In this document: positions 1 through 31,564 of the stretch, in pieces
Layout of the letters: the number at the start of each line of letters is the position of its first letter
How positions within the stretch are numbered: position 1 is the first letter of the stretch
Assembly (NCBI RefSeq): GCF_001652585.1
Contig: NZ_LWLG01000002.1
Location: 60,001 to 92,000 of the forward strand
Direction of reading: 5' to 3'
DNA length: 32,000 nucleotides
Source of the DNA: Thermosulfurimonas dismutans
Lineage (GTDB): Bacteria; Desulfobacterota; Thermodesulfobacteria; Thermodesulfobacteriales; Thermodesulfobacteriaceae
The notes under the pieces: generated by a model
Seen by the model: only the letters and a program-made list of their open reading frames with translations
What the model was told of the DNA's origin: nothing
The model's database searches: none
Made by a program: the position numbers and the translations under genes

Positions 1-1077
1 TTCCTGAAACTGCTGAAGATGGTGGTAGCCCCCCTGATCTTTACCTCGGTATTTATAAGCCTCTTAAATCTGAAGAGTCTGAAAACCCTGGAACGGTTGG
101 GTCTTAGGACCATCATTTACTACCTTGCGACCACCTCCCTTTCGGTTCTAATAGGCCTCCTCCTGGTGAACCTCATCAAACCCTCGGCCGAGATAGGGGC
201 CAGCGAGATACCCGAATTAAAAACCATTTCCCTATCAGAGCTCTTCCTCGGGCTCTTTCCGGAAAATATCGTCAAGAGCTTCGCCCACACGGAGGTCATT
301 CCCATCATCTTCTTCGCTATGGTGTTGGCTCTTGCGGCTCTCAAAATAGGAGAAAAGGCCAGACCGTTGAACTTATTTTTCGGGGCCCTCAACGAGACTC
401 TTCTCACCCTCACTCGGGGCATCATCCGCCTGACACCGGCAGGAGTCTTCTTTCTGGTAGCTTCTTTGGTGGCCAAGGAAGGTCTCTCTCCACTCATATC
501 CCTCTGGGAATATGCCGGAACCGTAGTCCTGGGACTAGCCATCCATGGTTTGGTAACCCTGCCTTTTCTCCTTTATCTCTTCACCCGGACAAACCCCTGG
601 CGGTATTTCCTTGCCGTGCGGGAAGCTCCGCTTCTAGCCCTCTCCACGGCTTCGAGTTCGGCCACTCTGCCGGTAACCATTGAAGTTGCCGAGGAAAAAG
701 CCGGAGTAAAACCTGAGGTGGCAGGTTTCATCCTCCCCCTGGGGTCCACCGTCAATATGGACGGCACCGCCCTTTACGAGGCCGTAGCCGCCATGTTCAT
801 TGCCTACTCCTACGGTCTCAAACTCACGCTTTCTCAGCAGGTGGTTATCTTCTTGACTGCGGTTCTGGCCTCGGTGGGAGCTGCGGGTATTCCCAGTGCA
901 GGCCTGGTAACCATGACCTTAGTCCTTCAATCCGTGGGCCTTCCCCTTGAGGGCCTGGGGCTGATCTTGGCGGTGGATAGATTCTTGGATATGCTACGAA
1001 CTAGCATAAACGTTTGGGGAGACCTAGTGGGGGCTAAAATCATAGATTCCTGGTTGCCCAAGGAGGCCAAGCATTAA
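1..1077 (+). CDS. Dicarboxylate/amino acid:cation symporter (DAACS / GltP family), 5'-truncated by window edge
   Basis: Frame 1 is open from base 1 (FLKLLKMVVAPLIF...). Stop TAA at 1075-1077. Family signature motifs SSSATLP and NMDGTALYEA are present, with many hydrophobic TM segments. Confidence 0.85.
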   Translation, partial: FLKLLKMVVAPLIFTSVFISLLNLKSLKTLERLGLRTIIYYLATTSLSVLIGLLLVNLIKPSAEIGASEIPELKTISLSELFLGLFPENIVKSFAHTEVIPIIFFAMVLALAALKIGEKARPLNLFFGALNETLLTLTRGIIRLTPAGVFFLVASLVAKEGLSPLISLWEYAGTVVLGLAIHGLVTLPFLLYLFTRTNPWRYFLAVREAPLLALSTASSSATLPVTIEVAEEKAGVKPEVAGFILPLGSTVNMDGTALYEAVAAMFIAYSYGLKLTLSQQVVIFLTAVLASVGAAGIPSAGLVTMTLVLQSVGLPLEGLGLILAVDRFLDMLRTSINVWGDLVGAKIIDSWLPKEAKH

Positions 1078-1663
1078 CGCCTCTGAGAAAGAACGCCTGA
1101 TTCCGGATACCAGCATCTTCACCAATCCTGACGTTTATCACCAGCTGGGTGAAAGTCCCCCCGAAGCCTTTGAAAACTTCCTTCTCTTAGCGGCGGAGGC
1201 CGACGGACTCTCCGTTTATATGCCTTCTTCCATTTATGAGGAACTGAAAAAGATGGTAAAGGATCTTCACATCCCGCCCAGGGCCCGGGCCATTTTCAAG
1301 GTCAAATCCCCCCGAAAGTATGAACTCCAGATTCCGGCCTTCTTACTTTATGAATTCATCGAAGACCTGAGGAAAAGGATCAATAAAGGGCTCCGGGTGG
1401 CCGAAGAGGCCGTGAGGCTCAGTTCCGGAAAAAAACCAGGAGAGGTCATCAACATTCTTCGCCGAAAATATCGGGAGGCCCTCCGGGAGGGGATCGTAGA
1501 TAGCCGAGAGGACCTAGAGCTCATCTTGCTAGCCCTTGAGCTTGATGGCATAGTGCTTTCGGCAGACCGAGGAGTCCTTCTTATGGCGGACAAGCTTGGT
1601 ATCCGCTACATTCCCCCGAAGGAGATTCGGGAAACCCTCGAGGGTTTCCGGTACCTGGGTTAG
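1073..1663 (+). CDS. PIN-like metallonuclease of the HARP family (homologue of Aquifex RNase P, protein-only RNase P; formerly 'RNA ligase partner / UPF0278'). Start codon uncertain: ATT 1073 or CTG 1097
   Basis: The track ORF 1220-1663 begins at the first ATG. The same frame stays open back to 1046 and encodes ...ERLIPDTSIFTNPDVYHQLGESPPEAFENFLLLAAEADGLSVY-MPSSIYEEL. This is a typical PIN N-terminus with the first catalytic Asp ('DTS'). Downstream motifs INKGLRVAEE, LRRKYREALREGIVDSREDLELILLALELDGIVLSADRG match my memory of the Aq_880/HARP family (not verifiable here). AGGAGG at 1061-1066 lies 6 nt before ATT 1073. Confidence 0.65.
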   Translation: MNASEKERLIPDTSIFTNPDVYHQLGESPPEAFENFLLLAAEADGLSVYMPSSIYEELKKMVKDLHIPPRARAIFKVKSPRKYELQIPAFLLYEFIEDLRKRINKGLRVAEEAVRLSSGKKPGEVINILRRKYREALREGIVDSREDLELILLALELDGIVLSADRGVLLMADKLGIRYIPPKEIRETLEGFRYLG

Positions 1664-2872: not shown

Positions 2873-2926
2873 GCCTTAGAAGGCTACAGATTTTTTAAAT
2901 TTGTAAAAAAATTTCGGAAATTTTTG

Positions 2927-3436
2927 TCAAAAAGAAGCGGTTATTTGGTGGTAGATGATGTCGGCCAAATCCTCGGATAGTTTGCGCAGGGCCTCCTCCT
3001 TTCCAGGATCAAGGACCCCTGAGGATGTCCCCTCCACGGGATAATTCTCATACCGGGAGAGGTTACGATTTTGCCAGATTATCTGTCCGTCCCTTGTCCG
3101 CATATCGACGGCCAGGGTTACGGAAACCCGCCGTTCTAGGGTTTCGGTGTAAGTATTGTAAGAAATCCCGCCTACGGAAAGGCTCTTGACCTCTCCGCCA
3201 ATTACGAGATCGGCTTTGGTAGGACTGGCGGCCAACTTTACAAAGCCACTTCGGGCAAATCTACGCCTCAAGGCCTCAGAGAGATAGACCCCTAGTTCGG
3301 TCTCCGCGGTTCGGTTCTTAAAGATTTCCACATAAAGGGTCTGCCACTCGGGCCTAAACCCGGGAGGCTTTTCTCTCAAACGATATCCACAGGCATTGAG
3401 AAAAAGGACAAGGATCAGAAAACTAGTTCGCCACAA
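2927..3436 (-). CDS. lptE: LPS-assembly lipoprotein LptE (RlpB-like)
   Basis: Lies immediately downstream of leuS, the conserved leuS-lptE synteny known from E. coli. Starting at TTG 3436 gives [16 protein letters not shown]|GYRLRE, a good lipoprotein signal with a lipobox Cys followed by the LptE-typical G-[YF]-x-L-R. The longest ORF (TTG 3490) would overlap leuS by 68 nt. Confidence 0.6.
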
Positions 3437-13702: not shown

Positions 13703-13740
13703 TTCTTATCAAGCGAAAGAATTCGAAAAGGGGCTTGAAT

Positions 13741-15111
13741 ATGATTCCCAAAGTTCCAACCTCCGGAATCGATTTCGATAATATGACCGTACAAACTTCG
13801 TCTTCTACCCCAAACCTTCCTTCGGATTTTTTCCAAATACTTCTGCTGGCCCTGATGAACCTTTTTCAGGGAAAAGCGAACGACGAAACGAAAACCTTGG
13901 AATCCTCAGCGAACAACTCGGAAAAAGACATGTTTGGAACTCAGAAACCTTTAAGAATCGAAAATTTAGAGCAAGGAAAGGGTCTAACGTCTATCCTTGG
14001 TCTTCTTTTGCCAGAACCTTTGGCGCAAAATCTTAATCAGGAAGAGGCTCAGCCATTCCCCTCTGAGGGAGAGACGATTAGCTCCAAAACCGCTCAAAGA
14101 ATTTTCTTTGAAGGGTTAAACTCCCCTATCGAATCCCCAGAAAAATTCCTCCCAAATACCAAAAGTAAAATCAAAGTCCAAGAATCTTATACAAATATAG
14201 TGAAAGATAATTCTGGTTTTCAGGTTGAAAATTTTCTTCGCCTTCCTTTACAAGAATCTGCCTTTCACAAGAATCCAGAAGACTCATCTTTGATGGACGA
14301 GAAGCTTCAGGATGTGTCCAAAACAATTCTCGAAGTATCTACGAGAAACCAAAACGGCCTCGAAACCCCAAATAATTTATGGCGAGAAAAGAGCACGGAC
14401 ACGGAACCAGATCTAAAATTGAAGACCCATTCCCAAGAAACGGATTCAAATCTCTCTTTAAAGCTCCAAGAAACACCTAAAGAAAACGGCAAGCAGATTT
14501 ATGGCATACGCAACGAAATCTCTTACCGAAAAAAGGTCGGATCAAAAATAGAAAATAAGGACTCCAGGGATTTAACAAAGCATCGAATCTTTAATACAGA
14601 AGAACTTAAGATCATCCCAGGTGACAAGGGAGTTTCCGTTTCCTCACAAGAGATCTATCAATCTTCTCGCCATGTTCTTCATCCTCAGGAAACGATACCT
14701 CCCGGAGAAGTTGAACATATCATCAAGGATTTCATCTATGAAATTCAGCCCTCGGGAGAAAGGCGGGCCAAGATCAAACTTGAGCCTCCGGAACTTGGAG
14801 AGATGGAAATAGATCTCAAGGTCCACAAAGGAGAGGTACAGGTTGTCCTTACCGTGGAAAAGCCAGAAGCCGCAAGAGAACTCCATTTACACCTACCCCA
14901 TCTAAGACACTCCCTAGAGGAACTGGGACTCAATCTCTCCGAATTTCAGATAGGCTTCTTTGGAGGCGGAGGCGGCGAAACCTCTTATACCTATCAAGAT
15001 ACTGGAGAGGAGAAAAAAAGAGGACCTATGAGGGTTGATAAATTAGCTTCGTCAAAGGAAGCTCCCATTACAGAAGCTGAAAAAGAAGGACTTTTAAACA
15101 TTGTGGTTTAG
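13741..15111 (+). CDS. fliK: Flagellar hook-length control protein FliK
   Basis: Low-complexity, low-GC N-terminal two-thirds. The C-terminal Flg_hook-type domain is RAKIKLEPPELGEMEIDLKVHKGEVQVVLTVEKPEAARELHLHLPHLRHSLEELGLNL. It sits directly upstream of flgD/flgE. ATG 13741 is preferred over TTG 13735 (GGGG 7 nt upstream). Confidence 0.8.
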   Translation: MIPKVPTSGIDFDNMTVQTSSSTPNLPSDFFQILLLALMNLFQGKANDETKTLESSANNSEKDMFGTQKPLRIENLEQGKGLTSILGLLLPEPLAQNLNQEEAQPFPSEGETISSKTAQRIFFEGLNSPIESPEKFLPNTKSKIKVQESYTNIVKDNSGFQVENFLRLPLQESAFHKNPEDSSLMDEKLQDVSKTILEVSTRNQNGLETPNNLWREKSTDTEPDLKLKTHSQETDSNLSLKLQETPKENGKQIYGIRNEISYRKKVGSKIENKDSRDLTKHRIFNTEELKIIPGDKGVSVSSQEIYQSSRHVLHPQETIPPGEVEHIIKDFIYEIQPSGERRAKIKLEPPELGEMEIDLKVHKGEVQVVLTVEKPEAARELHLHLPHLRHSLEELGLNLSEFQIGFFGGGGGETSYTYQDTGEEKKRGPMRVDKLASSKEAPITEAEKEGLLNIVV

Positions 15112-15120
15112 GAGGAAGAA

Positions 15121-15786
15121 ATGATTGCCGGAGTGGATGAAAAGACCGGACAGCCTTTGGCTTTGACTCGAACCCCCAAGAAAGTCCTTGGAAGAGAGGA
15201 CTTCATCAAGCTTTTTGTTACCCAGCTTCAGTATCAGGACCCCATGAAACCTATCGAAAATAATGAGATGGCCATGCAGATGGCTCTGTTCAGTCAGGTG
15301 GATCAGCTCTTCAACCTCAACGAAAGCTTTGAAAAGCTACTTGAGATGGCCAAGGCCTACAATTTTTCCACCACCGCCTCCCTGGTGGGCAAATTGGTTA
15401 AGGCCCAAGGGTCTTACGGACGAGTGGAAAACGGTCGATTCCTAGGGGCCGAATTTGAACTTGACGAGCCCGCCAACCAGGTAGAGGTGGTCATTTATAG
15501 CGAGTCCGGTGAAGTAATTAAACGTTTGAATCTGGGGGCCCTTCCAGAGGGCAGCCACACCATTGAATGGGATGCCACCGACCAGTCCGGAAACACGGTT
15601 CCAGATGGGAACTATCGTCTGAAGGTTGTCCTACCGGGAAAAGAGCAGGAGTCCGTAACCGTAAAAGTTTACGGGCGGGTTACAGGGGCGGTGCTGGGGG
15701 AAGAGACCCAGATCATCCTTAATGAACACGAAAAACTAGATATCTCAGATCTTAAGGAGATCCTTGATCCCGAAAGTCTCTCTTAG
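15121..15786 (+). CDS. flgD: Flagellar hook capping/assembly protein FlgD
   Basis: FIKLFVTQLQYQDPMKPIENNEMAMQMALFSQV (FlgD N-terminal motif) plus a FlgD Ig-like/Tudor C-terminal region. AGGAGG SD. Confidence 0.9.
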   Translation: MIAGVDEKTGQPLALTRTPKKVLGREDFIKLFVTQLQYQDPMKPIENNEMAMQMALFSQVDQLFNLNESFEKLLEMAKAYNFSTTASLVGKLVKAQGSYGRVENGRFLGAEFELDEPANQVEVVIYSESGEVIKRLNLGALPEGSHTIEWDATDQSGNTVPDGNYRLKVVLPGKEQESVTVKVYGRVTGAVLGEETQIILNEHEKLDISDLKEILDPESLS

Positions 15787-15797
15787 GAGGAAAGACC

Positions 15798-17192
15798 ATG
15801 AGCCTTTTGGGGAGCATATACCTTGGAACCTCCGGAGTCAAAACCCAAAGCCAGGGCATGCGGATCGCGGCCGATAACATTGGCAATCTAAATACTACCG
15901 GCTTCAAGGGTAGTCGTGGCCTTTTCGAAGATGTCTTTCTTGAGGTCTCCGGAGAAGTCTTTTCCTCCCAAAAGGGTTTGGGAAGTATGCTAAAAGACAT
16001 AGATATCGACTTTTCGCCTGGGAACCTTCTTTCCACGGATATTCCAACCGATCTGGCTATCTTGGGGAAGGGATTTTTTATACTTAAAGATTCCAGCGGA
16101 GAGAACTTTTTTTCCCGCGACGGCCAATTTTTGCTGGCAGAAACCGAGAACAACACCCTAAGACTGGTCAATTCCTTAGGTTATAGTTTACTCGGCGCCG
16201 ATCCCGGAGCCACACCGAATGGTGTGGCAGACCTTTCTCCTATTGAAATACCCAAAACCATTTCCGGTAGAGCCACCGAAAGGATCAGTCTAGAAATGAA
16301 TCTAGATGCCAGAAAGGAACCCGAGGCCCTTTCCTTAAGCCTCCTTGAGGCCTGGGATGCTACCAACCCAGACGACCCCATCAATCCCGGAAATTACGAA
16401 TTCATTACGGACACAAAAGTTTATGATCCCACTGGAGTGGAACACCAATTGACCATCTACTTTGATACCACCGACCAAAATAATCAGTACGAAATCTTAG
16501 TTACCTTAGCCGATCCCACCGAGGACTGGCGAGGCTCGGGACGTTATTCCGGAGCCCTTCTTTGGGGGACCCTCAACTTCGGGGCCGCTGGGGAAATCGT
16601 AGACGCGACTTTTTTTACCGTGGATGACGTCAACACTGGAAGCCTCACCCCGATTGATCTTACGGCCACCGGAAGGCCTCAGTTCACGCTGAATTTTACC
16701 GGTACCCCTCAAACCGTGACCCTGGATCTAGGTTTTTACTTTGATGCTACCGGTAGCCTCATCCGAACTCCCCAATCTGTTCATATGTATGGAGCTCCCT
16801 TTGCCGTTTATTATCAGCATCAAGACGGCTATCCCCCCGGGATCTTCGACCACCTCGAAATTGACCTAGAGGGAGTAATAAGAGCCTACTATAGCAATCA
16901 GCAATCCCAGGAGGTAGCTCGTATCTTCCTGGCGGACTTCACCGGATCGGATGATGCCCTTAAACGGGTCGGTGGCAACCTTTTCAAATCCGTAACCGGG
17001 GCCTCTCCGGAAATCTTTGCCCCCGGAAGATCAGCTATTGGAGCCATTAACTCAGGAGCTCTGGAAGGCTCGAATGTAGACCTCGCCACCGAGATGGTCA
17101 ACTTGATCACCCTCCAGCGGGCCTTTCAGAGCAACGCTCGTGTGATAACTACTGCGGACCAGATGCTGGAAGATTTTTTGAGGGCTAAGTAA
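15798..17192 (+). CDS. flgE: Flagellar hook protein FlgE (short paralogue, 464 aa)
   Basis: Rod/hook N-terminal motif (GMRIAADNIGNLNTTGFKG), FFIL...SRDGQF, and a C-terminal GALEGSNVDLATEMVNLITLQRAFQSNARVITTADQML. AGGAGG SD. Confidence 0.9.
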   Translation: MSLLGSIYLGTSGVKTQSQGMRIAADNIGNLNTTGFKGSRGLFEDVFLEVSGEVFSSQKGLGSMLKDIDIDFSPGNLLSTDIPTDLAILGKGFFILKDSSGENFFSRDGQFLLAETENNTLRLVNSLGYSLLGADPGATPNGVADLSPIEIPKTISGRATERISLEMNLDARKEPEALSLSLLEAWDATNPDDPINPGNYEFITDTKVYDPTGVEHQLTIYFDTTDQNNQYEILVTLADPTEDWRGSGRYSGALLWGTLNFGAAGEIVDATFFTVDDVNTGSLTPIDLTATGRPQFTLNFTGTPQTVTLDLGFYFDATGSLIRTPQSVHMYGAPFAVYYQHQDGYPPGIFDHLEIDLEGVIRAYYSNQQSQEVARIFLADFTGSDDALKRVGGNLFKSVTGASPEIFAPGRSAIGAINSGALEGSNVDLATEMVNLITLQRAFQSNARVITTADQMLEDFLRAK

Positions 17193-17248
17193 TAAACATT
17201 CAGGTTTCAAGTAAAAAATTCCGAAAATAGGAAGAGGAGGTATGGGCC

Positions 17249-19486
17249 ATGGCTTTGACGGATGCCCTTTTTACTGGAACCAGCGGACTTAAAAGTTTGG
17301 GACACGGTATGAGTGTGGTAGGAGATAACGTATCCAACCTCAATACTACGGCTTTCAAGGGGGCTCGGGTCACCTTTCAGGATGTAATGGCCCAGAGCAT
17401 CAACACAGCCTCAGGCTCTGGACAGCTTGGTCGAGGAGCTACAGTCCAGGCCCTCTATCCTACCTTTGGGCAAGGATCCTTTGAGTCCACCGCCAATCCC
17501 ACAGATTTAGCTATTGCCGGAAATGGCTTCTTCATTGTAAAGGAGCCCGGCTCAACCGGAAACCTTTTTTATACCCGAGACGGTCAATTCATGGTGGACA
17601 AAAACGGTTACTTAGTAAACCCCGCTGGGTTCCGGATCCAAGGCTGGCAAATAGACGAAAATACCGGGGATATCACCGGAGCCATTACCGATATCCGCAT
17701 CGATCGCACCTCTCCTCCGGTAGCCACTTCCAAGATCGATGTCATCACTAATCTGGACGCCCGCGAAGATATCGAAACCATGGTGATTAACCTTAACGGA
17801 AATATAACTGATGGCGGATCGGCTGAGACTACCTTTGTAATCCGGGATATAGATGGAAACGACAATAAGATTTACGTAAAACTCACCTACAACGCCATTC
17901 TTAACAAATGGGATTACGAGATAAGAAAAAATAGTGCTACCGGAGCTATCCTGGCCCAGGGAACGGATTCTACAGCTACCCGGGCCACCATCCAGCTACC
18001 CTCTACAGGAGAAAACATAATAATTGACTGGAGTACCGTTACCCATACGACTACGGGAAATTTGATCTCCGCTCCTGGACGAGAAGGAAGGGTAGAAATT
18101 AGTGACGGAGGCACGCCTATCAGTAACAATAACTGGGTATATACGGATTTCACCCTTAAAGACGCCAACGGCACGGATCGGAACTTGAGGATATGGCTTT
18201 ATTACGATGGTGGCGATGGACGATGGGACTATTATGTAGTTGAAAATCCCGATCCTGGAGCTACTGATCCTGCCTCTGAGACCGGAACCATCCTGGCCCG
18301 CGGACAAAATGTAAACGAAACCTCAGCGTACTTTTTCCTAGATGGAACTACACAGATGGCAACTATTGATTGGAGTTTGGTTGGCACAGGCGGAACCGGA
18401 AACACGATTACAGTAGATAATAAGTATGCACTTCAAGAAGTTAGTTCTCTTTTTGACCGCTGGGATGCTCGTAACGAAACTCCCTTGGCCTCTACCGAAT
18501 ATACCTACCGCACCACCCTAACCATCTACGATTCTCTGGGAACTCCGCATGAGATAACTATCTATTATGACACCACCACCAAGGACAATACTTACGAATT
18601 CTTGGTAACTTGCAGTCCCACGGAAGACCAACGGGATTTCACTAAAGACACTGATCCTATGAAGTGGTTAACGGAAGAAGGGAGTGTGCCAGTTACAAAA
18701 GACATTCCTTCCGGAAGCACTTTTGCCAAGGCCAAACAAGGCGTACTCATGTACGGTAGACTAGCCTTTGACAACCAGGGAAACGTCAAAAATTTCTATC
18801 AAACCTACCGTCTGGACGCTAATACGGGTGCCTTGGTAAAAGTTATAGATCAGAATGGACTTCCGGTACCTGATCCTTTGGATGGCTTTGATGCCCTTGG
18901 AGCCAATGGCTATCCCATCTTTATTGCAGACTTTTTGGGAATAGATCTAGTGGATAACCGTCCCGCAGGCTCTGAACAGTATCAAGGGGCCTCTCGGAAT
19001 GACCTTCAGCAGATTGAACTCAATTTTGGTTACTTCTATAAAGATTCTTGGCGTTCGGAGTCTGTAAGAACCACCCAGTACGCCACAAGTAACTCCACCA
19101 TCTTTTATGACCAGGACGGCTTCGGACCGGGATCTCTGGAATCTCTTTCCGTGGACACCGATGGTGTCATAACTGGACATTATTCTAACGGCCGGGTGAT
19201 TCCGCTCTGGATGGTAGCCCTCGCTAATTTCAACGCCCCGGAAAGACTAGACAAGGTAGGCGGCAACCTCTTCCGAGAGACCACCCATTCTGGGCCGCCT
19301 ATCACCGGAAAACCCCGCACCAATGGGCTTGGCTCCATCGCCCCTAATAGCCTAGAGCAGTCCAACGTAGATCTGGGTGAGCAGTTTGTGAAGATGATCA
19401 TCTTTCAGCGGGGCTTTCAGGCCGACGCCCGCATTATTACGGTAACCGACACCATGCTAGACGAGCTCATCAACCTCAAACGATAA
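17249..19486 (+). CDS. flgE: Flagellar hook protein FlgE paralogue (long form, 745 aa) with large inserted outer domains
   Basis: Same N- and C-terminal rod/hook motifs (GMSVVGDNVSNLNTTAFKG; NSLEQSNVDLGEQFVKMIIFQRGFQADARIITVTDTML). The core is collinear with the upstream paralogue (TLTIYDSLGTPHEITIYYDTTTKDNTYEFLV versus TKVYDPTGVEHQLTIYFDTTDQNNQYEILV). GGAGG lies 8 nt before the ATG. Confidence 0.85.
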   Translation: MALTDALFTGTSGLKSLGHGMSVVGDNVSNLNTTAFKGARVTFQDVMAQSINTASGSGQLGRGATVQALYPTFGQGSFESTANPTDLAIAGNGFFIVKEPGSTGNLFYTRDGQFMVDKNGYLVNPAGFRIQGWQIDENTGDITGAITDIRIDRTSPPVATSKIDVITNLDAREDIETMVINLNGNITDGGSAETTFVIRDIDGNDNKIYVKLTYNAILNKWDYEIRKNSATGAILAQGTDSTATRATIQLPSTGENIIIDWSTVTHTTTGNLISAPGREGRVEISDGGTPISNNNWVYTDFTLKDANGTDRNLRIWLYYDGGDGRWDYYVVENPDPGATDPASETGTILARGQNVNETSAYFFLDGTTQMATIDWSLVGTGGTGNTITVDNKYALQEVSSLFDRWDARNETPLASTEYTYRTTLTIYDSLGTPHEITIYYDTTTKDNTYEFLVTCSPTEDQRDFTKDTDPMKWLTEEGSVPVTKDIPSGSTFAKAKQGVLMYGRLAFDNQGNVKNFYQTYRLDANTGALVKVIDQNGLPVPDPLDGFDALGANGYPIFIADFLGIDLVDNRPAGSEQYQGASRNDLQQIELNFGYFYKDSWRSESVRTTQYATSNSTIFYDQDGFGPGSLESLSVDTDGVITGHYSNGRVIPLWMVALANFNAPERLDKVGGNLFRETTHSGPPITGKPRTNGLGSIAPNSLEQSNVDLGEQFVKMIIFQRGFQADARIITVTDTMLDELINLKR
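17828..18412 (+). repeat. Protein-level tandem duplication (two modules of about 80-90 aa) inside the long FlgE paralogue
   Basis: aa 194-274 (TTFVIRDIDGNDNKIYVKLTYNAILNKWDYEIRKNSATGAILAQG...IIIDWSTVTHTTTGNLIS) aligns with aa 299-388 (TDFTLKDANGTDRNLRIWLYYDGGDGRWDYYVVEN...TGTILARG...ATIDWSLVGTGGTGNTIT). Shared anchors are F..D.G.D, WDY, TG.ILA.G, IDWS.V and TGN.I. Confidence 0.6.
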
Positions 19487-27301: not shown

Positions 27302-28312
27302 CTAAAACTGCTCCAGAAACTTGAGGTGATTTTCGTAAAAGAGCCGAATGTCATCTATGCCGTATTTGAGCATGGCGATCCTTTCAATGCCCAGGCCAAA
27401 GGCAAAACCTTGCCATTTTTCAGTGTCATAACCCACGGCCTTAAAAACATTGGGGTGCACCATGCCCGCCCCTAGGATCTCAAGCCAACCCGTATCTCCA
27501 CAAAGCCGACAGCCTGCCCCCCGACAGATCACACATTCTATGTCCATCTCCGCACTCGGTTCTGTAAAAGGGAAATAACTGGGCCTGAAACGCACCCGAG
27601 TCTCGGTACCGAAAACCTCTTTGGCAAAATAGGTAAGGACACCCTTTAGATCCGAAAAACTGACCGACCGGTCCACCATCAGGCCTTCTATCTGATGAAA
27701 CATGGGGGTATGACGCACGTCCGAATCACAGCGGTAAACTTTACCTGGGGCAATGATCCGCAGAGGAGGCTTACGGGTCAACATAGTCCGGATCTGGATG
27801 GGTGAAGTGTGGGTCCGGAGGAGAAAGCCTTCCGGGAAGTAGAAAGTATCCTGCATATCCCGAGCCGGATGATCCGGCGGGATATTCAAGGCTTCAAAGT
27901 TATAGTAATCCAATTCTATCTCAGGCCCTCGGGCAATACTAAACCCCAGTCGTTCGAAAATGGCACAGATCTCACGCAAGATCTGGGTTATGGGATGGAG
28001 TTTCCCCAGCTCATAAGGCCTGCCAGGAAGGGTAAGATCCAGGCCCGGGGCTTCATCCTCAGCGGCCCGCAAGAGGTCTTCTCGTTTTCGAAAGATCAGC
28101 TCCTCAAGCTCTCGCTTGAGCTCATTGGCCCGACGCCCTATAACCGGCCGCAGGTCCGGAGGAAGATCTTTGATATTCTTTACAATAGCGGTGACCAGGC
28201 CCTTTTTGCCCAGGTACTTAATTCGCAACCAATCTAGGGCCTTAACATCTTGAACGGCCTCGATCTCTTCAAGGGCCCGGCCTCTTAATTCTTCAAGTTC
28301 CCGCTCGGTCAT
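27302..28312 (-). CDS. pheS: Phenylalanine--tRNA ligase alpha subunit
   Basis: 336 aa. Class II motifs (HPARDMQDTFY, LRTHTSPIQIR, GFAFGLGIERIAMLKYGI). Confidence 0.97.
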   Translation of the reverse strand: MTERELEELRGRALEEIEAVQDVKALDWLRIKYLGKKGLVTAIVKNIKDLPPDLRPVIGRRANELKRELEELIFRKREDLLRAAEDEAPGLDLTLPGRPYELGKLHPITQILREICAIFERLGFSIARGPEIELDYYNFEALNIPPDHPARDMQDTFYFPEGFLLRTHTSPIQIRTMLTRKPPLRIIAPGKVYRCDSDVRHTPMFHQIEGLMVDRSVSFSDLKGVLTYFAKEVFGTETRVRFRPSYFPFTEPSAEMDIECVICRGAGCRLCGDTGWLEILGAGMVHPNVFKAVGYDTEKWQGFAFGLGIERIAMLKYGIDDIRLFYENHLKFLEQF

Positions 28313-28321
28313 CCGTAAACT

Positions 28322-28678
28322 TTATTGCCAGGCCTGCTTGGCCTTTTCCACCAGTTTGGCAAAGACTTCCGGCTCGGTAACCGCCAGATTAGCCAGGATC
28401 TTACGATCTAGATCCACACCAACCTTCTTCAATCCCCCCATAAACCGGCTGTAATTCAGGCCGTGAATCCGGGCCGCAGCATTGATCCTCACCTGCCAGA
28501 GACGGCGAAAGTCGCGCTTCTTTTGTCTACGGTCACGGTAGGCGTAAACCAAGGCCCTCTCCACCGTCTCCCGAACTCGTCTAAAACAATTCTTACGCTG
28601 TCCCCAGTAGCCTTTAGCCAACTTGAGATACTTCTTATGTCGCCTCCGGGTCTTAAAACCGCCTTTAGCTCTGGGCAT
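28322..28678 (-). CDS. rplT: 50S ribosomal protein L20
   Basis: [26 protein letters not shown]... is a canonical L20. GGGAGGTGA SD. Confidence 0.97.
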
Positions 28679-28749
28679 TTCTAACTCACCTCCCGATTAA
28701 CTTTTTCCTTGTCCCAAACCGAAAACAAGGCCTATTTTCAAAGACATCC

Positions 28750-28959
28750 CTAGAACTTGTAGGGAATGAGTTTCTCAACCCTTTTTACGTAACCCCCTTC
28801 GAGCACCTTGTCCTTCCGGAGGTTACGTTTGCGCTTGGCGCTCTTCTTTCTCAAAAGATGGCTTTTGCAGGCCCGGAAGTGCACGATCTTTCCGCTTCCG
28901 GTGACTTTAAAACGCTTGGCTGCCGAACGGTTAGTTTTCATCTTATTCTTCTTGCCCAT
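28750..28959 (-). CDS. rpmI: 50S ribosomal protein L35
   Basis: ...[30 protein letters not shown]... is a canonical L35. Start set at ATG 28959 (a GGGGGA-type SD upstream). The track's GTG 28977 overlaps the infC stop and adds 6 atypical residues. ATG 28941 is also possible. Confidence 0.9.
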
Positions 28960-28976
28960 CTCTTCCCCCAAAGCCA

Positions 28977-29501
28977 CTATTTTTTAACCGGCCCCAGAAT
29001 CATGATCATCTGGCGGCCTTCCATGCGCGGAGCCATTTCAACTCGGCCCAAATCCTTAACCGCTTCCTCGATCTTTTGCAAGACCTGTTTCCCCAACTCC
29101 GGGTGGGCCAACTCCCGCCCTCGGAAAAACACCCGTATTTTAACCTTGTTTTTGTCTTCTAGAAAGCGTCTTATGTGCCGGATTTTGGTCTGAAGATCGT
29201 GCTCCTCGGTCTTGGGACGAACCTTGATCTCCTTGAGCTCCACTTGTGTCTGACGCTTTTTGGCCTCTTTGGCCTTCTTAGCTTCCTGGTAGAGAAACTG
29301 TCCATAATCCATGATCTTGCAGACCGGAGGACTGGCCTGTGGAGCCACCTCCACCAGGTCAAGCCCGTATTCTTCGGCCTTGGCCAGAGCCTCCCGCAGG
29401 GATACTACCCCTATCTGCTTACCATCCGGCCCGATGAGCCTTACTTCCCTCGCCCGAATTTTCTCATTTACCCGGTACTTACGCTTGTCAATGCTTCCCA
29501 A
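28977..29501 (-). CDS. infC: Translation initiation factor IF-3
   Basis: [22 protein letters not shown]..., [14 protein letters not shown], and C-domain [17 protein letters not shown]. The apparent start is TTG 29501, preceded by GGGAGGG-TTAT. An in-frame ATT lies three codons downstream. Confidence 0.95.
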
Positions 29502-29511
29502 ATAACCCTCC

Positions 29512-31422
29512 CTACCATATTATTTTTTGGATTATCTCCTCTTTTAATCTTTCTGCAAATTCTTCAATCGTAAATTCAAGATTTTCGCCTTTTCGGGTCC
29601 GGACAGTAATACGGCTATTTTCTAACTCTTTATCCCCCACAATTATCATATAGGGCACTTTCTTAACCTGAGCCTCGCGGATCTTGAAACCCAGTTTTTC
29701 GTTACGAAAATCCCTTTCCACTCGGAAACCGGCCTCGGCCAGTTTCGCATACACCATCTCCGCAAACTCCTGATGTCGATCGGCCACAGTCATCACCACC
29801 GCCTGAACCGGCGAAAGCCAGACCGGAAAAGCTCCGGCATAATGTTCAATAAGAACCCCGAAAAACCGCTCCAACGACCCCAGAAGCGCACGATGAATCA
29901 TTATGGGCCGATAAGGCCGATTATCCGGCCCAATGTAGGAAATATCAAAGCGTTCCGGAATATTAAAGTCCACTTGAATGGTAGAGCACTGCCAGAAACG
30001 TCCTAGAACATCGCGAATCTTGAGGTCAATTTTGGGCCCGTAAAAGACCCCTTCCCCAGGATCAATCTCATAAGGAAGACCCTTCTTTTCCAGAGCCGCC
30101 CTTAAAGCCCCCTCGGCCTTCTCCCAGATCTCCTCTGAACCCACATACTTATCTGGACGGGTGGAGAGATAGATCTGGTATTCCTTGAACCCAAAGACCG
30201 AAAGAAAGTGAACCACCAGATCCAGGACTTTGTAGAGTTCTTCCTCAAGTTGATCTTCACGGCAAAAAATGTGGGCATCGTCCTGGGTAAACCCCCTCAC
30301 TCGAAGAAGACCATGGAGTACCCCGCTTCTCTCATAACGATAAACCGTCCCCAGCTCGCAGTAGCGAATAGGGAACTCCCGGTAGCTTCGCTTCCGGCTC
30401 TGGTAAATAAGAATATGAAAGGGACAATTCATAGGTTTCAACTGATAAGCCCGCTCATCAATCTCCATGGGGGCAAACATATTTTCGGCGTAGAAATCAA
30501 GGTGACCGGATATCTTCCAGAGATCCCGCAGGGCAATATGAGGAGTATAGACCAACTGGTAACCTCGCTTTAAATGCTCATCCCTCCAAAAGTCCTCTAT
30601 TTCCTTTCTTACAATAGCCCCTTTGGGAAGCCAGAGAATAAGACCCGGGCCAATCTCCTCCTCAATACTGAAAAGCTCAAGCTCTCGACCAAGCTTGCGA
30701 TGATCTCGCCGTTTGGCCTCCTCTAGCCTCTCAAGATAGGCCTTCAGGTCTTCTTTACGGAAGAAGGCCGTGCCGTAGATGCGCTGAAGCTGAGGATTCC
30801 TCTCGTCTCCCCGCCAGTAGGCCCCAGCTACCGAAAGGAGTTTGAAGGCCTTGACTAACCCAGTGTGCGGAAGATGGGGCCCACGACAGAGGTCTACGAA
30901 TCGATCCTGTTTGTAAATACTTACCGTTTCCTCAGGAATTTCCCGGATAAGTTCAAGCTTGTAACGTTCTCCCAATTCCGAAAAGAGCCTTTCGGCTTCC
31001 TCTCTAGAAAGCTCTTCCCGCACCAAGGGATAACGCTTTTTCACAATCTCTTTCATCTTCTTTTCAATGGCCTTAAGATCCTCCTCGGTGAAGGGCCTAT
31101 CATAATCAAAGTCATAATAAAAGCCTTCCTCGGTGGCTGGACCGATCCCGAGCTTTACCCCGGGGAAGAGCTCCTTCACTGCCTGGGCCAGAACGTGAGA
31201 AGCCGTGTGCCTTAAAATCTCAAGGGCCTCGGGCGATTCCGGAAAAATGGGCTTTACCTCGCCTCCATGCCTAACAGGGGAGTGCAAATCAAGGAGTTCC
31301 TCATCTATTTTAAAGGCCAGAGGTTTCTTTTCGGAAAGTTCGAGAAGATCAACCAACTCCCTTGCAGGAGTGCCAGCTTTCACCGCAAACTCTTTGCCCT
31401 CAAAACTTAGTTTTATTTCCAC
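29512..31422 (-). CDS. thrS: Threonine--tRNA ligase
   Basis: TGS domain, editing-domain motif (LRHTASHVLAQAV), class II core and anticodon-binding domain. Start set to GTG 31422 (M-EIKLSFEGKEF aligns with the E. coli MPVITLPDG N-terminus), with GAGGT 7 nt upstream. The track's TTG 31473 has no SD and lies inside a strong hairpin. Confidence 0.95.
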   Translation of the reverse strand: MEIKLSFEGKEFAVKAGTPARELVDLLELSEKKPLAFKIDEELLDLHSPVRHGGEVKPIFPESPEALEILRHTASHVLAQAVKELFPGVKLGIGPATEEGFYYDFDYDRPFTEEDLKAIEKKMKEIVKKRYPLVREELSREEAERLFSELGERYKLELIREIPEETVSIYKQDRFVDLCRGPHLPHTGLVKAFKLLSVAGAYWRGDERNPQLQRIYGTAFFRKEDLKAYLERLEEAKRRDHRKLGRELELFSIEEEIGPGLILWLPKGAIVRKEIEDFWRDEHLKRGYQLVYTPHIALRDLWKISGHLDFYAENMFAPMEIDERAYQLKPMNCPFHILIYQSRKRSYREFPIRYCELGTVYRYERSGVLHGLLRVRGFTQDDAHIFCREDQLEEELYKVLDLVVHFLSVFGFKEYQIYLSTRPDKYVGSEEIWEKAEGALRAALEKKGLPYEIDPGEGVFYGPKIDLKIRDVLGRFWQCSTIQVDFNIPERFDISYIGPDNRPYRPIMIHRALLGSLERFFGVLIEHYAGAFPVWLSPVQAVVMTVADRHQEFAEMVYAKLAEAGFRVERDFRNEKLGFKIREAQVKKVPYMIIVGDKELENSRITVRTRKGENLEFTIEEFAERLKEEIIQKIIW

Positions 31423-31450
31423 CTCCCCTACCTCTTTCGAAACAAAATGA

Positions 31451-31480
31451 AGGCCTCTCGGGAAGTTCCCCAAGAGGCCT
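31451..31480 (-). terminator. Strong GC-rich hairpin between tRNA-Val and thrS (terminator, attenuator or processing signal); T-runs flank it on both strands
   Basis: AGGCCTCT (31451-31458) and AGAGGCCT (31473-31480) are exact reverse complements, with an inner GGG/CCC extension. On the minus strand it is followed by TCATTTTGTTT, and on the plus strand by TTTT. Confidence 0.5.
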
Positions 31481-31489
31481 TTTTAACAA

Positions 31490-31564
31490 TGGTAGGCGCG
31501 GGCGGGATCGAACCGCCGACCTCTTGCGCGTCAAGCAAGCGCTCTCCCACTGAGCTACGCGCCT
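31490..31564 (-). tRNA. tRNA-Val (anticodon GAC), CCA encoded
   Basis: The reverse complement folds by hand as a 75-nt cloverleaf. The segments are AGGCGCG-TA-GCTC-AGTGGGA-GAGC-G-CTTGC-TTGACGC-GCAAG-AGGTC-GGCGG-TTCGATC-CCGCC-CGCGCCT-A-CCA. All four stems are fully Watson-Crick. U33 is present and position 37 is G, which is unusual for Val. Confidence 0.9.

Follow-up and report, generated by a model that had tools for sequence, protein, structure and literature searches.

At which codon does translation begin when the catalytic N-terminus of a protein is encoded ahead of every canonical start codon in its frame? The question is raised by a HARP gene, predicted to encode a protein-only ribonuclease P (RNase P), in a 32-kb stretch of the Thermosulfurimonas dismutans genome (hereafter the window, meaning the whole stretch that was analyzed; features lie on its + strand unless stated otherwise). 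Comparison with related sequences led us to place the start at the AUU codon at 1073-1075, a start that appears to be conserved as AUU or AUC through the genus, and we give this reading a probability of about three in four.

Identity of the gene and extent of its reading frame

The coding sequence that begins at this ATT (1073-1663) comprises 196 codons plus a TAG stop. Its translation matched the Pfam PIN_5 profile with an E-value of 3.3e-60 and 203.5 bits (cut-off 27), residues 8-191 covering profile positions 1-202 of 205, and passed the NCBIfam model TIGR03875 (193.2 bits, cut-off 95.3), while the narrower equivalog NF003344 gave 227 bits, under its cut-off of 241. Seven PDB sequences were matched with E-values of 1e-56 to 3e-44, every one named "RNA-free ribonuclease P"; they include 7e8k, 8ssf, 8kd9, 7f3e and 7og5, and their sources are a Planctomycetes bacterium, Hydrogenobacter thermophilus, Aquifex aeolicus, Thermococcus celer and Halorhodospira halophila. 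We then used an AlphaFold2 monomer model (predicted local distance difference test score, pLDDT, 82; predicted template modeling score, pTM, 0.74) for a Foldseek search against PDB, in which 7e8o, 8kda, 8kd9 and 7f3e came out on top with E-values down to 5e-20, template modeling (TM) scores of 0.81-0.89 and root-mean-square deviations of 2.0-3.2 Å. An earlier note on this stretch, made from the sequence without database searches, had proposed an Aq_880-like HARP, an identity supported by PIN_5, by TIGR03875 and by the seven solved RNA-free RNase P structures. On the strength of these sequence and model comparisons, we firmly assign 1073-1663 to a predicted intact gene for HARP, the protein-only RNase P of the PIN_5/TIGR03875/UPF0278 family.

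Residue equivalences to Aq880, the founding HARP, were taken from the HMMER alignment. The active site of Aq880 consists of Asp7, Thr8, Ser9, Asp138, Ser139, Glu141, Asp142 and Asp160, of which Asp7 is essential (PMC8405995, PMC8266387), and seven basic residues form its proposed tRNA-elbow binding site (PMC8405995). The active-site residues D7, T8, S9, D138, S139, E141, D142 and D160 correspond to D12, T13, S14, D143, S144, E146, D147 and D165 of the T. dismutans protein, and the basic residues R94, R96, K99, R102, R125, R129 and R133 to R100, R102, K105, R108, R130, R134 and R138; all eight active-site and all seven basic residues were invariant in an alignment of 31 homologues. Combining DSSP on the model with the HMMER mapping, we located predicted strand beta-1 (E7-P11, E-R-L-I-P) and the D12-T13-S14 triad that follows it at 1091-1114, with the DTS motif itself at 1106-1114. 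Mapping to Aq880 and the homologue alignment placed the protruding-helical domain with the seven basic residues at 1370-1486 (PMC8405995), where the model has two long helices (H89-116 and H122-137), and the remaining active site (D143, S144, E146, D147 and D165) at 1499-1567 (PMC8405995, PMC8266387, PMC9051087).

Read directly in the sequence, the HARP frame is closed upstream by a TAG at 1043-1045 and stays open from 1046 to the TAG at 1661-1663, giving 206 sense codons. The ORF listing holds a single ATG-, GTG- or TTG-initiated ORF in this frame, which begins at ATG 1220 and encodes 147 aa (1220-1663), and a codon scan of the window showed that positions 1046 to 1219 contain none of these three start codons in frame. 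The earlier note had described just this arrangement: one canonical ORF, a frame open from 1046, a 174-nt stretch ahead of M1220 devoid of canonical starts, and a DTS motif encoded within that stretch; each of these statements was confirmed. It had also held that the short ORF lacks the catalytic N-terminus, and indeed the 147-aa form spans just PIN_5 profile positions 47-202, with positions 1-46 missing, and is without D12, T13 and S14, including the Asp equivalent to Aq880 D7, so that the active-site set is complete in the long form only. The profile alignment of the long translation is colinear with HARPs through the DTS motif.

We next considered whether the segment ahead of ATG 1220 is translated. 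Within the clade, the ratio of non-synonymous to synonymous differences (pN/pS) was 0.10-0.25 over the 45 codons before ATG 1220, with synonymous divergence close to saturation (pS 0.66-0.94), which shows, by sequence comparison, that the segment is under purifying selection and hence translated. Independent assemblies of related genomes likewise have no canonical start upstream, and in every lineage the frame runs on uninterrupted ahead of the position equivalent to M1220, colinear with HARPs. Sequencing error and pseudogene were both ruled out as explanations, five independent lineages being without a canonical start and preserving the frame, at a low pN/pS.

Evidence for initiation at AUU or AUC

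In-frame near-cognate codons occur at ATT 1046, ATT 1073, CTG 1097, ATT 1100, ATC 1115 and CTG 1145. The favored one, ATT at 1073-1075, which would be read as fMet to give the 196-aa product, is preceded by a Shine-Dalgarno sequence AGGAGG at 1061-1066 with a 6-nt spacer. AGGAGG followed by 5-8 nt also stands ahead of the ATG or GTG of 8 long ORFs in the window and is the organism's normal strong ribosome-binding site.

To compare this junction among relatives, we aligned it with MAFFT from 10 sequences of the Thermosulfurimonas clade, representing 9 lineages (loci are designated by numbers with the prefix L). The GGAGG core was kept in 9 of the 10 sequences (8 of 9 lineages), even in L004, where the stop of the upstream symporter gene lies ahead of the core. 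In eight lineages, namely the window with L169, the L001 group, L003, L004, L018, L081, L170 (T. sp. F29) and L171 (T. marina), GGAGG is followed after 6 nt (7 in F29) by an in-frame ATT or ATC. Within the start-codon column the A and the T were invariant and the third base was T or C in all 10 sequences, always in the HARP frame, whereas the poorest-conserved columns included the 6 bases before this AT[T/C] and the variable codons that follow it, numbering three, or four in L018 (9-12 nt). Five of the eight lineages have this codon beyond the end of the symporter coding sequence, so its conservation is not due to symporter coding. In five of the eight, the stretch from the upstream stop to the catalytic Asp is entirely devoid of in-frame ATG, GTG and TTG codons.

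In the ninth lineage (L002, metagenome-assembled genome S143_67, 2880-3040), the ATC is retained, GGGGGT stands in place of AGGAGG, and a TTG two codons before the ATC provides the start; the predicted protein (P0003) begins M-E-I-V-T-P-E-R-E-R-L, and just a 3'-end remnant of the symporter gene precedes HARP. Across 171 HARP loci from genomes and metagenomes, a canonical start was missing in this clade only, plus in one locus cut by a contig end. A metagenome scan for more close relatives did not enlarge the clade, its best match being 75% identical. The T. dismutans gene offers no canonical start ahead of its catalytic Asp, and its relatives keep a near-cognate codon correctly spaced from the Shine-Dalgarno sequence. 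The non-canonical start proposed in the earlier note is accordingly narrowed, through the conserved GGAGG-N6/7-AT[T/C], to a predicted start at ATT 1073.

Public databases carry the T. dismutans protein in three lengths (147, 187 and 196 aa), a discrepancy that the probable rare AUU start explains. The best database match of our translation was WP_068668939.1 (RefSeq, 196 aa, "RNA ligase partner protein", T. dismutans), which is identical to the translation from ATT 1073 with Met first; WP_279614532.1 (187 aa), beginning M-P-D-T-S, corresponds to a start at ATT 1100, and OAQ21257.1 (TDIS_0477, 147 aa) is a "hypothetical protein", listed as "Uncharacterized protein" in UniProt. Orthologues are recorded with 204, 196 and 187 aa for T. 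sp. F29 and with 217 and 203 aa for T. marina, and RefSeq, independently of our comparison, picks the same AT[T/C] start in relatives (HFC97721.1, RUM89890.1, WP_370630452.1). Prodigal-type calls give 147 aa for the T. dismutans gene (Logan) and for a close relative (ENA and Logan contigs). The expectation, also from the earlier note, that standard gene callers would truncate the protein therefore holds for GenBank and for Prodigal-type calls and fails for RefSeq, where the product was already placed at ATT 1073; that product, the HARP family and rare AUU starts are all already known. In T. sp. F29 (L170, 1149-2060), the HARP frame is open for 303 codons back through a GC-rich symporter gene with no ATG, GTG or TTG, and GenBank gave this gene a CTG start (204 aa). 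The HARP papers searched do not discuss the start codon of HARP, the lone mention of a "start codon" there concerning rnpA, and the literature search returned no paper pairing Thermosulfurimonas with RNase P.

The gene upstream of HARP (1-1077, cut by the left window edge) is the 3' part of a sodium:dicarboxylate symporter gene (SDF, GltP/DctA-like), with a Pfam SDF match at an E-value of 8e-112 over profile positions 39-387 and an NCBIfam GltP/DctA-like match below cut-off. Its TAA stop (1075-1077) overlaps ATT 1073 as ATTAA, and the HARP ribosome-binding site lies within its last codons; this overlap and the AGGAGG 6 nt before the ATT, both pointed out in the earlier note, can be read in the sequence. 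The position of the symporter stop relative to the AT[T/C] varies: the two overlap in the window, the stop precedes the codon by 1-2 nt in L001, L018, L170 and L171 and by 11 nt in L004, and it follows the codon by 14-25 nt in L003 and L081. Of the termination-reinitiation coupling that had been suggested from ATTAA, what stands is the overlap in T. dismutans itself; it is specific to this species since the stop position varies, and the conserved feature is the Shine-Dalgarno sequence with AT[T/C]. A promoter scan found no sigma-70-like promoter for HARP between the two genes, that is, within the 3' part of the symporter gene, a weak negative. Shuffled sequences fold at least as well as the RNA around the start (z +1.1), whose consensus structure (-0.37 kcal/mol, no covariation) does not mask the site. 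HARP is probably co-transcribed with the symporter gene, because it has no promoter-like site of its own and its ribosome-binding site is inside the symporter's last codons, and a loose translational coupling is plausible.

Other starts within the frame have to be weighed against AUU 1073. Initiation just before the catalytic Asp, at ATT 1100 (187 aa, M-P-D-T-S...) or CTG 1097 (188 aa), two codons that together occupy 1097-1102 within predicted strand beta-1, is in our view unlikely. Both are near-cognate starts in translation table 11, RefSeq lists a 187-aa protein for each of T. dismutans and T. sp. F29, and nine of the 10 aligned sequences have ATT, ATC or ATA at the codon equivalent to 1100. 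That codon is nevertheless GTA in L081, and the equivalents of CTG 1097, which the earlier note had offered as the second available start, are CTC, CTT or CTA in L018, L171, L170 and L081, a variation on which we rejected CTG 1097. The codons for E-K/R-E-R lying upstream of both candidates are kept at the protein level, their differences being synonymous or conservative (GAG/GAA/GAT, AAA/AAG/AGG/AGA, GAA/GAG, CGC/CGT/CGA), belong to PIN_5 profile positions 1-4 and to the PDB alignments, and are also conserved in Thermodesulfobacteria HARPs that start with ATG. Starting at 1097 or 1100 would shorten the five-residue predicted strand beta-1 by 2-3 residues and would leave AGGAGG 30-33 nt upstream, with no other GGAGG-type Shine-Dalgarno sequence at a workable distance. 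As for the internal ATG (1220-1222, Met50), it is the only canonical start, and it was chosen by GenBank (OAQ21257.1, TDIS_0477) and by the Prodigal-type Logan call, as was its equivalent in the close relative (ENA and Logan contigs). Taking it as the true start would make the product a catalytically dead PIN fragment, or the gene a decaying, start-less pseudogene, and we consider this very improbable: the 45 upstream codons are as constrained as coding sequence, D12, T13 and S14 are invariant, the open frame is colinear with HARPs throughout all lineages, ATG 1220 has no Shine-Dalgarno sequence, and loss of a start followed by such divergence with no disruption of the frame would be unexpected of a pseudogene. 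The annotated 147-aa start thus appears to be a false one.

A different explanation dispenses with independent initiation, HARP being made either as a fusion to the symporter through a +1 frameshift near its stop or by obligatory reinitiation at ATTAA. An internal Shine-Dalgarno sequence right before a stop codon resembles the prfB +1 frameshift site, the ATT overlaps the symporter TAA in T. dismutans, and in no lineage are the symporter stop and the AT[T/C] more than 25 nt apart. We nonetheless hold this explanation to be improbable, as the position of the stop is not conserved, the last sense codons (CAT, GGA, GCC, GGC, GGG) share no common slippery codon, and L002 retains a HARP gene, with its TTG start, despite loss of the symporter gene. 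A prfB-like frameshift fusion in particular was rejected, since lineages differ both in where the symporter gene stops and in the sense codon that precedes its stop.

Several points tell against initiation at AUU 1073 and what we build on it. The later of the RefSeq records, WP_279614532.1, picked ATT 1100, and some lineages have canonical alternatives, with a TTG three codons past the ATC in L081 and a far-upstream GTG within the symporter gene in L004 and L171. Initiation in E. coli from AUU, AUC, AUA or CUG reaches only about 1-2% of the level of AUG (bioRxiv 10.1101/063800). The N-termini of Thermosulfurimonas HARPs are placed by sequence comparison, the RNase P activity of the T. dismutans protein is ascribed by homology, and co-transcription and coupling are suggested by gene arrangement together with a weakly negative promoter scan.

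Neighboring genes and other HARP loci

Downstream, a convergent KamA-family radical SAM gene (aminomutase-like; 1660-2784, - strand) was identified by Pfam Radical_SAM and TIGR00238 (222 bits, cut-off 199). Its TAA stop, read as TTA at 1660-1662, overlaps the HARP stop (TTAG, 1660-1663), and its start, at 2784, is AGGAGG-N5-ATG. The overlap or abutment of the HARP and radical SAM stops is kept in relatives (4 nt in L081, 9 nt in L170 and 13 nt in L171). The gene order aspartokinase-like (-), SDF symporter (+), HARP (+), radical SAM (-), LptE (-) and LeuRS (-) was found throughout the clade in all but L002, and the radical SAM gene is a conserved neighbor by position.

Elsewhere in the window, fliK-like and flgD flagellar hook genes stand ahead of a tandem pair of FlgE-like hook genes that differ greatly in size, 464 and 745 aa (whole group at 13735-19486, + strand), and a cluster of tRNA-Val, thrS, infC, (rpmI), rplT, pheS and pheT lies at 27302-31564 on the - strand. 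We considered infC as an example of an ATT start within the same genome and rejected it, as it appears to start at TTG 29501 after GGGAGGG, unlike the AUU of E. coli infC.

Among the other HARP loci, a separate Thermodesulfobacteriales lineage about 75% identical (L008, 1788-1900, and L092) has lost the ATG of its sister lineages (M-A-F-E-L-E becoming R-I-I-E-L-E). L008 reads GGAGG-CGCATC-ATC, and its only canonical start is a TTG located 31 codons before the catalytic Asp and lacking a Shine-Dalgarno sequence, from which the gene is annotated (216 aa, P0006). Judged by this sequence, L008 and L092 may have a second, independent ATC start. A promoter scan of the + strand found no sigma-70-like promoter in L008 that would exclude the far TTG; a TTGCCT-17 nt-TAATAT, matching at 8 of 12 positions, was read by eye as a promoter, a speculative reading. 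In many Nitrospirota/Thermodesulfovibrionales HARP genes (L020-L168), the nearest ATG is 26-34 codons before the catalytic Asp, a position implying a low-complexity Ser/Lys/Glu-rich N-terminal extension with no counterpart in Aquificota and Thermodesulfobacteria HARPs; in a Planctomycetes HARP, a basic N-terminal extension helps pre-tRNA binding (PMC9051087).

Proposed working and comparison with known systems

In the working that we propose, HARP would be co-transcribed with the symporter gene and loosely coupled to it in translation, a ribosome loading at the AGGAGG inside the last symporter codons and initiating at AUU 1073. The resulting 196-residue protein would act as a PIN_5-type metallonuclease, removing the 5' leader of precursor tRNAs with no RNA subunit. 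AUU is a weak start that is discriminated against by initiation factor IF3 in E. coli (bioRxiv 10.1101/063800, PMC9723500, PMC5499595), so HARP output is probably low, unless the perfect Shine-Dalgarno sequence and coupling compensate.

Modest production would be in keeping with an auxiliary role for HARP beside the RNA-based RNase P that T. dismutans, like its relatives, probably carries as well. T. indicus (Thermodesulfatator indicus, of the same phylum) has rnpA and rnpB, T. geofontis has the RNase P RNA, and both genes are present in most other HARP-carrying bacteria (PMC9945441, PMC12439589); our default expectation from this is that HARP would be a second RNase P in T. dismutans, beside the RNA-based one. 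The window itself yielded no RNase P RNA gene (rnpB), and a single tRNA-Val only. HARP as the sole RNase P of T. dismutans seems unlikely by the same analogy. We entertain, with considerable doubt, the idea that the genus-wide AUU/AUC start could be a selected throttle, keeping the protein-only RNase P low through IF3 and coupling beside the RNA-based enzyme; if this were so, the parallel loss of ATG in L008 and L092 would amount to recurrent selection for weak HARP initiation.

The comparison adds genus-wide support for the AUU/AUC start and resolves conflicting public annotations, which is of use for annotation and expression work, given that the short forms miss the catalytic Asp or part of predicted strand beta-1. 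It provides a well-supported, phylogenetically conserved case of probable AUU/AUC initiation beyond infC and pcnB, and a hint of weak HARP expression in bacteria that probably have two kinds of RNase P, while the understanding of RNase P and of initiation is unchanged. Interest would rise if the weak start were a regulatory device or if T. dismutans were without rnpB and rnpA, in which case it would represent a new RNA-free lineage outside Aquificaceae.

Aq_880 (Aq880; Aquifex aeolicus, PDB 7f3e and 8kd9), at about 190 aa, is close in size to the 196-aa T. dismutans protein and shares its PIN_5 nuclease and protruding-helical domains at about 46-47% identity in the Foldseek alignments, all four essential Asp, the equivalents of T8, S9, S139 and E141, and the seven elbow-binding basic residues being present in T. 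dismutans HARP. It differs in having six residues before the catalytic Asp, compared with eleven in T. dismutans if ATT 1073 is the start. In Aquifex, HARP is the only RNase P. HARPs form dimers, and mostly larger oligomers in those examined, with dodecamers in Aq880 (PMC8405995, PMC8266387, PMC10652100), and we infer an oligomeric state for the T. dismutans protein by homology.

T. indicus HARP (P0009) is the closer relative, with 73% identity over 190 residues and no gaps. Several bacterial HARPs assayed were poorly active (PMC9945441), and T. indicus HARP is the one bacterial member from outside Aquificaceae with demonstrated robust activity, processing pre-tRNA 5' ends in vitro and rescuing E. 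coli from RNase P depletion (PMC9945441, PMC12439589). Unlike the T. dismutans gene, it has a normal ATG start (M-A-F-E-L-E-V-E-R-E-R-L...), and in T. autotrophicus, of the same genus as T. indicus, HARP (L016) likewise starts at ATG and has no adjoining symporter gene. VapC-type PIN toxins resemble HARP in their PIN metallonuclease core with acidic residues and appear as distant structural matches (ranks 37-50, TM about 0.4); HARP matches are far stronger (E-values of 1e-20 versus 1e-2), and, unlike VapC, the T. dismutans gene has no upstream antitoxin gene, while its product has a large helical insertion (the protruding-helical domain) and HARP-specific motifs.

For the start itself, the points of comparison are the unrelated E. 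coli genes infC and pcnB, the classical AUU-initiated genes, which likewise combine an AUU start with a Shine-Dalgarno sequence. The AUU start of E. coli infC is part of a demonstrated autoregulatory loop, whereas that of T. dismutans HARP is predicted from sequence; and, in contrast to infC and pcnB, Thermosulfurimonas HARP appears to alternate between AUU and AUC from one species to another.

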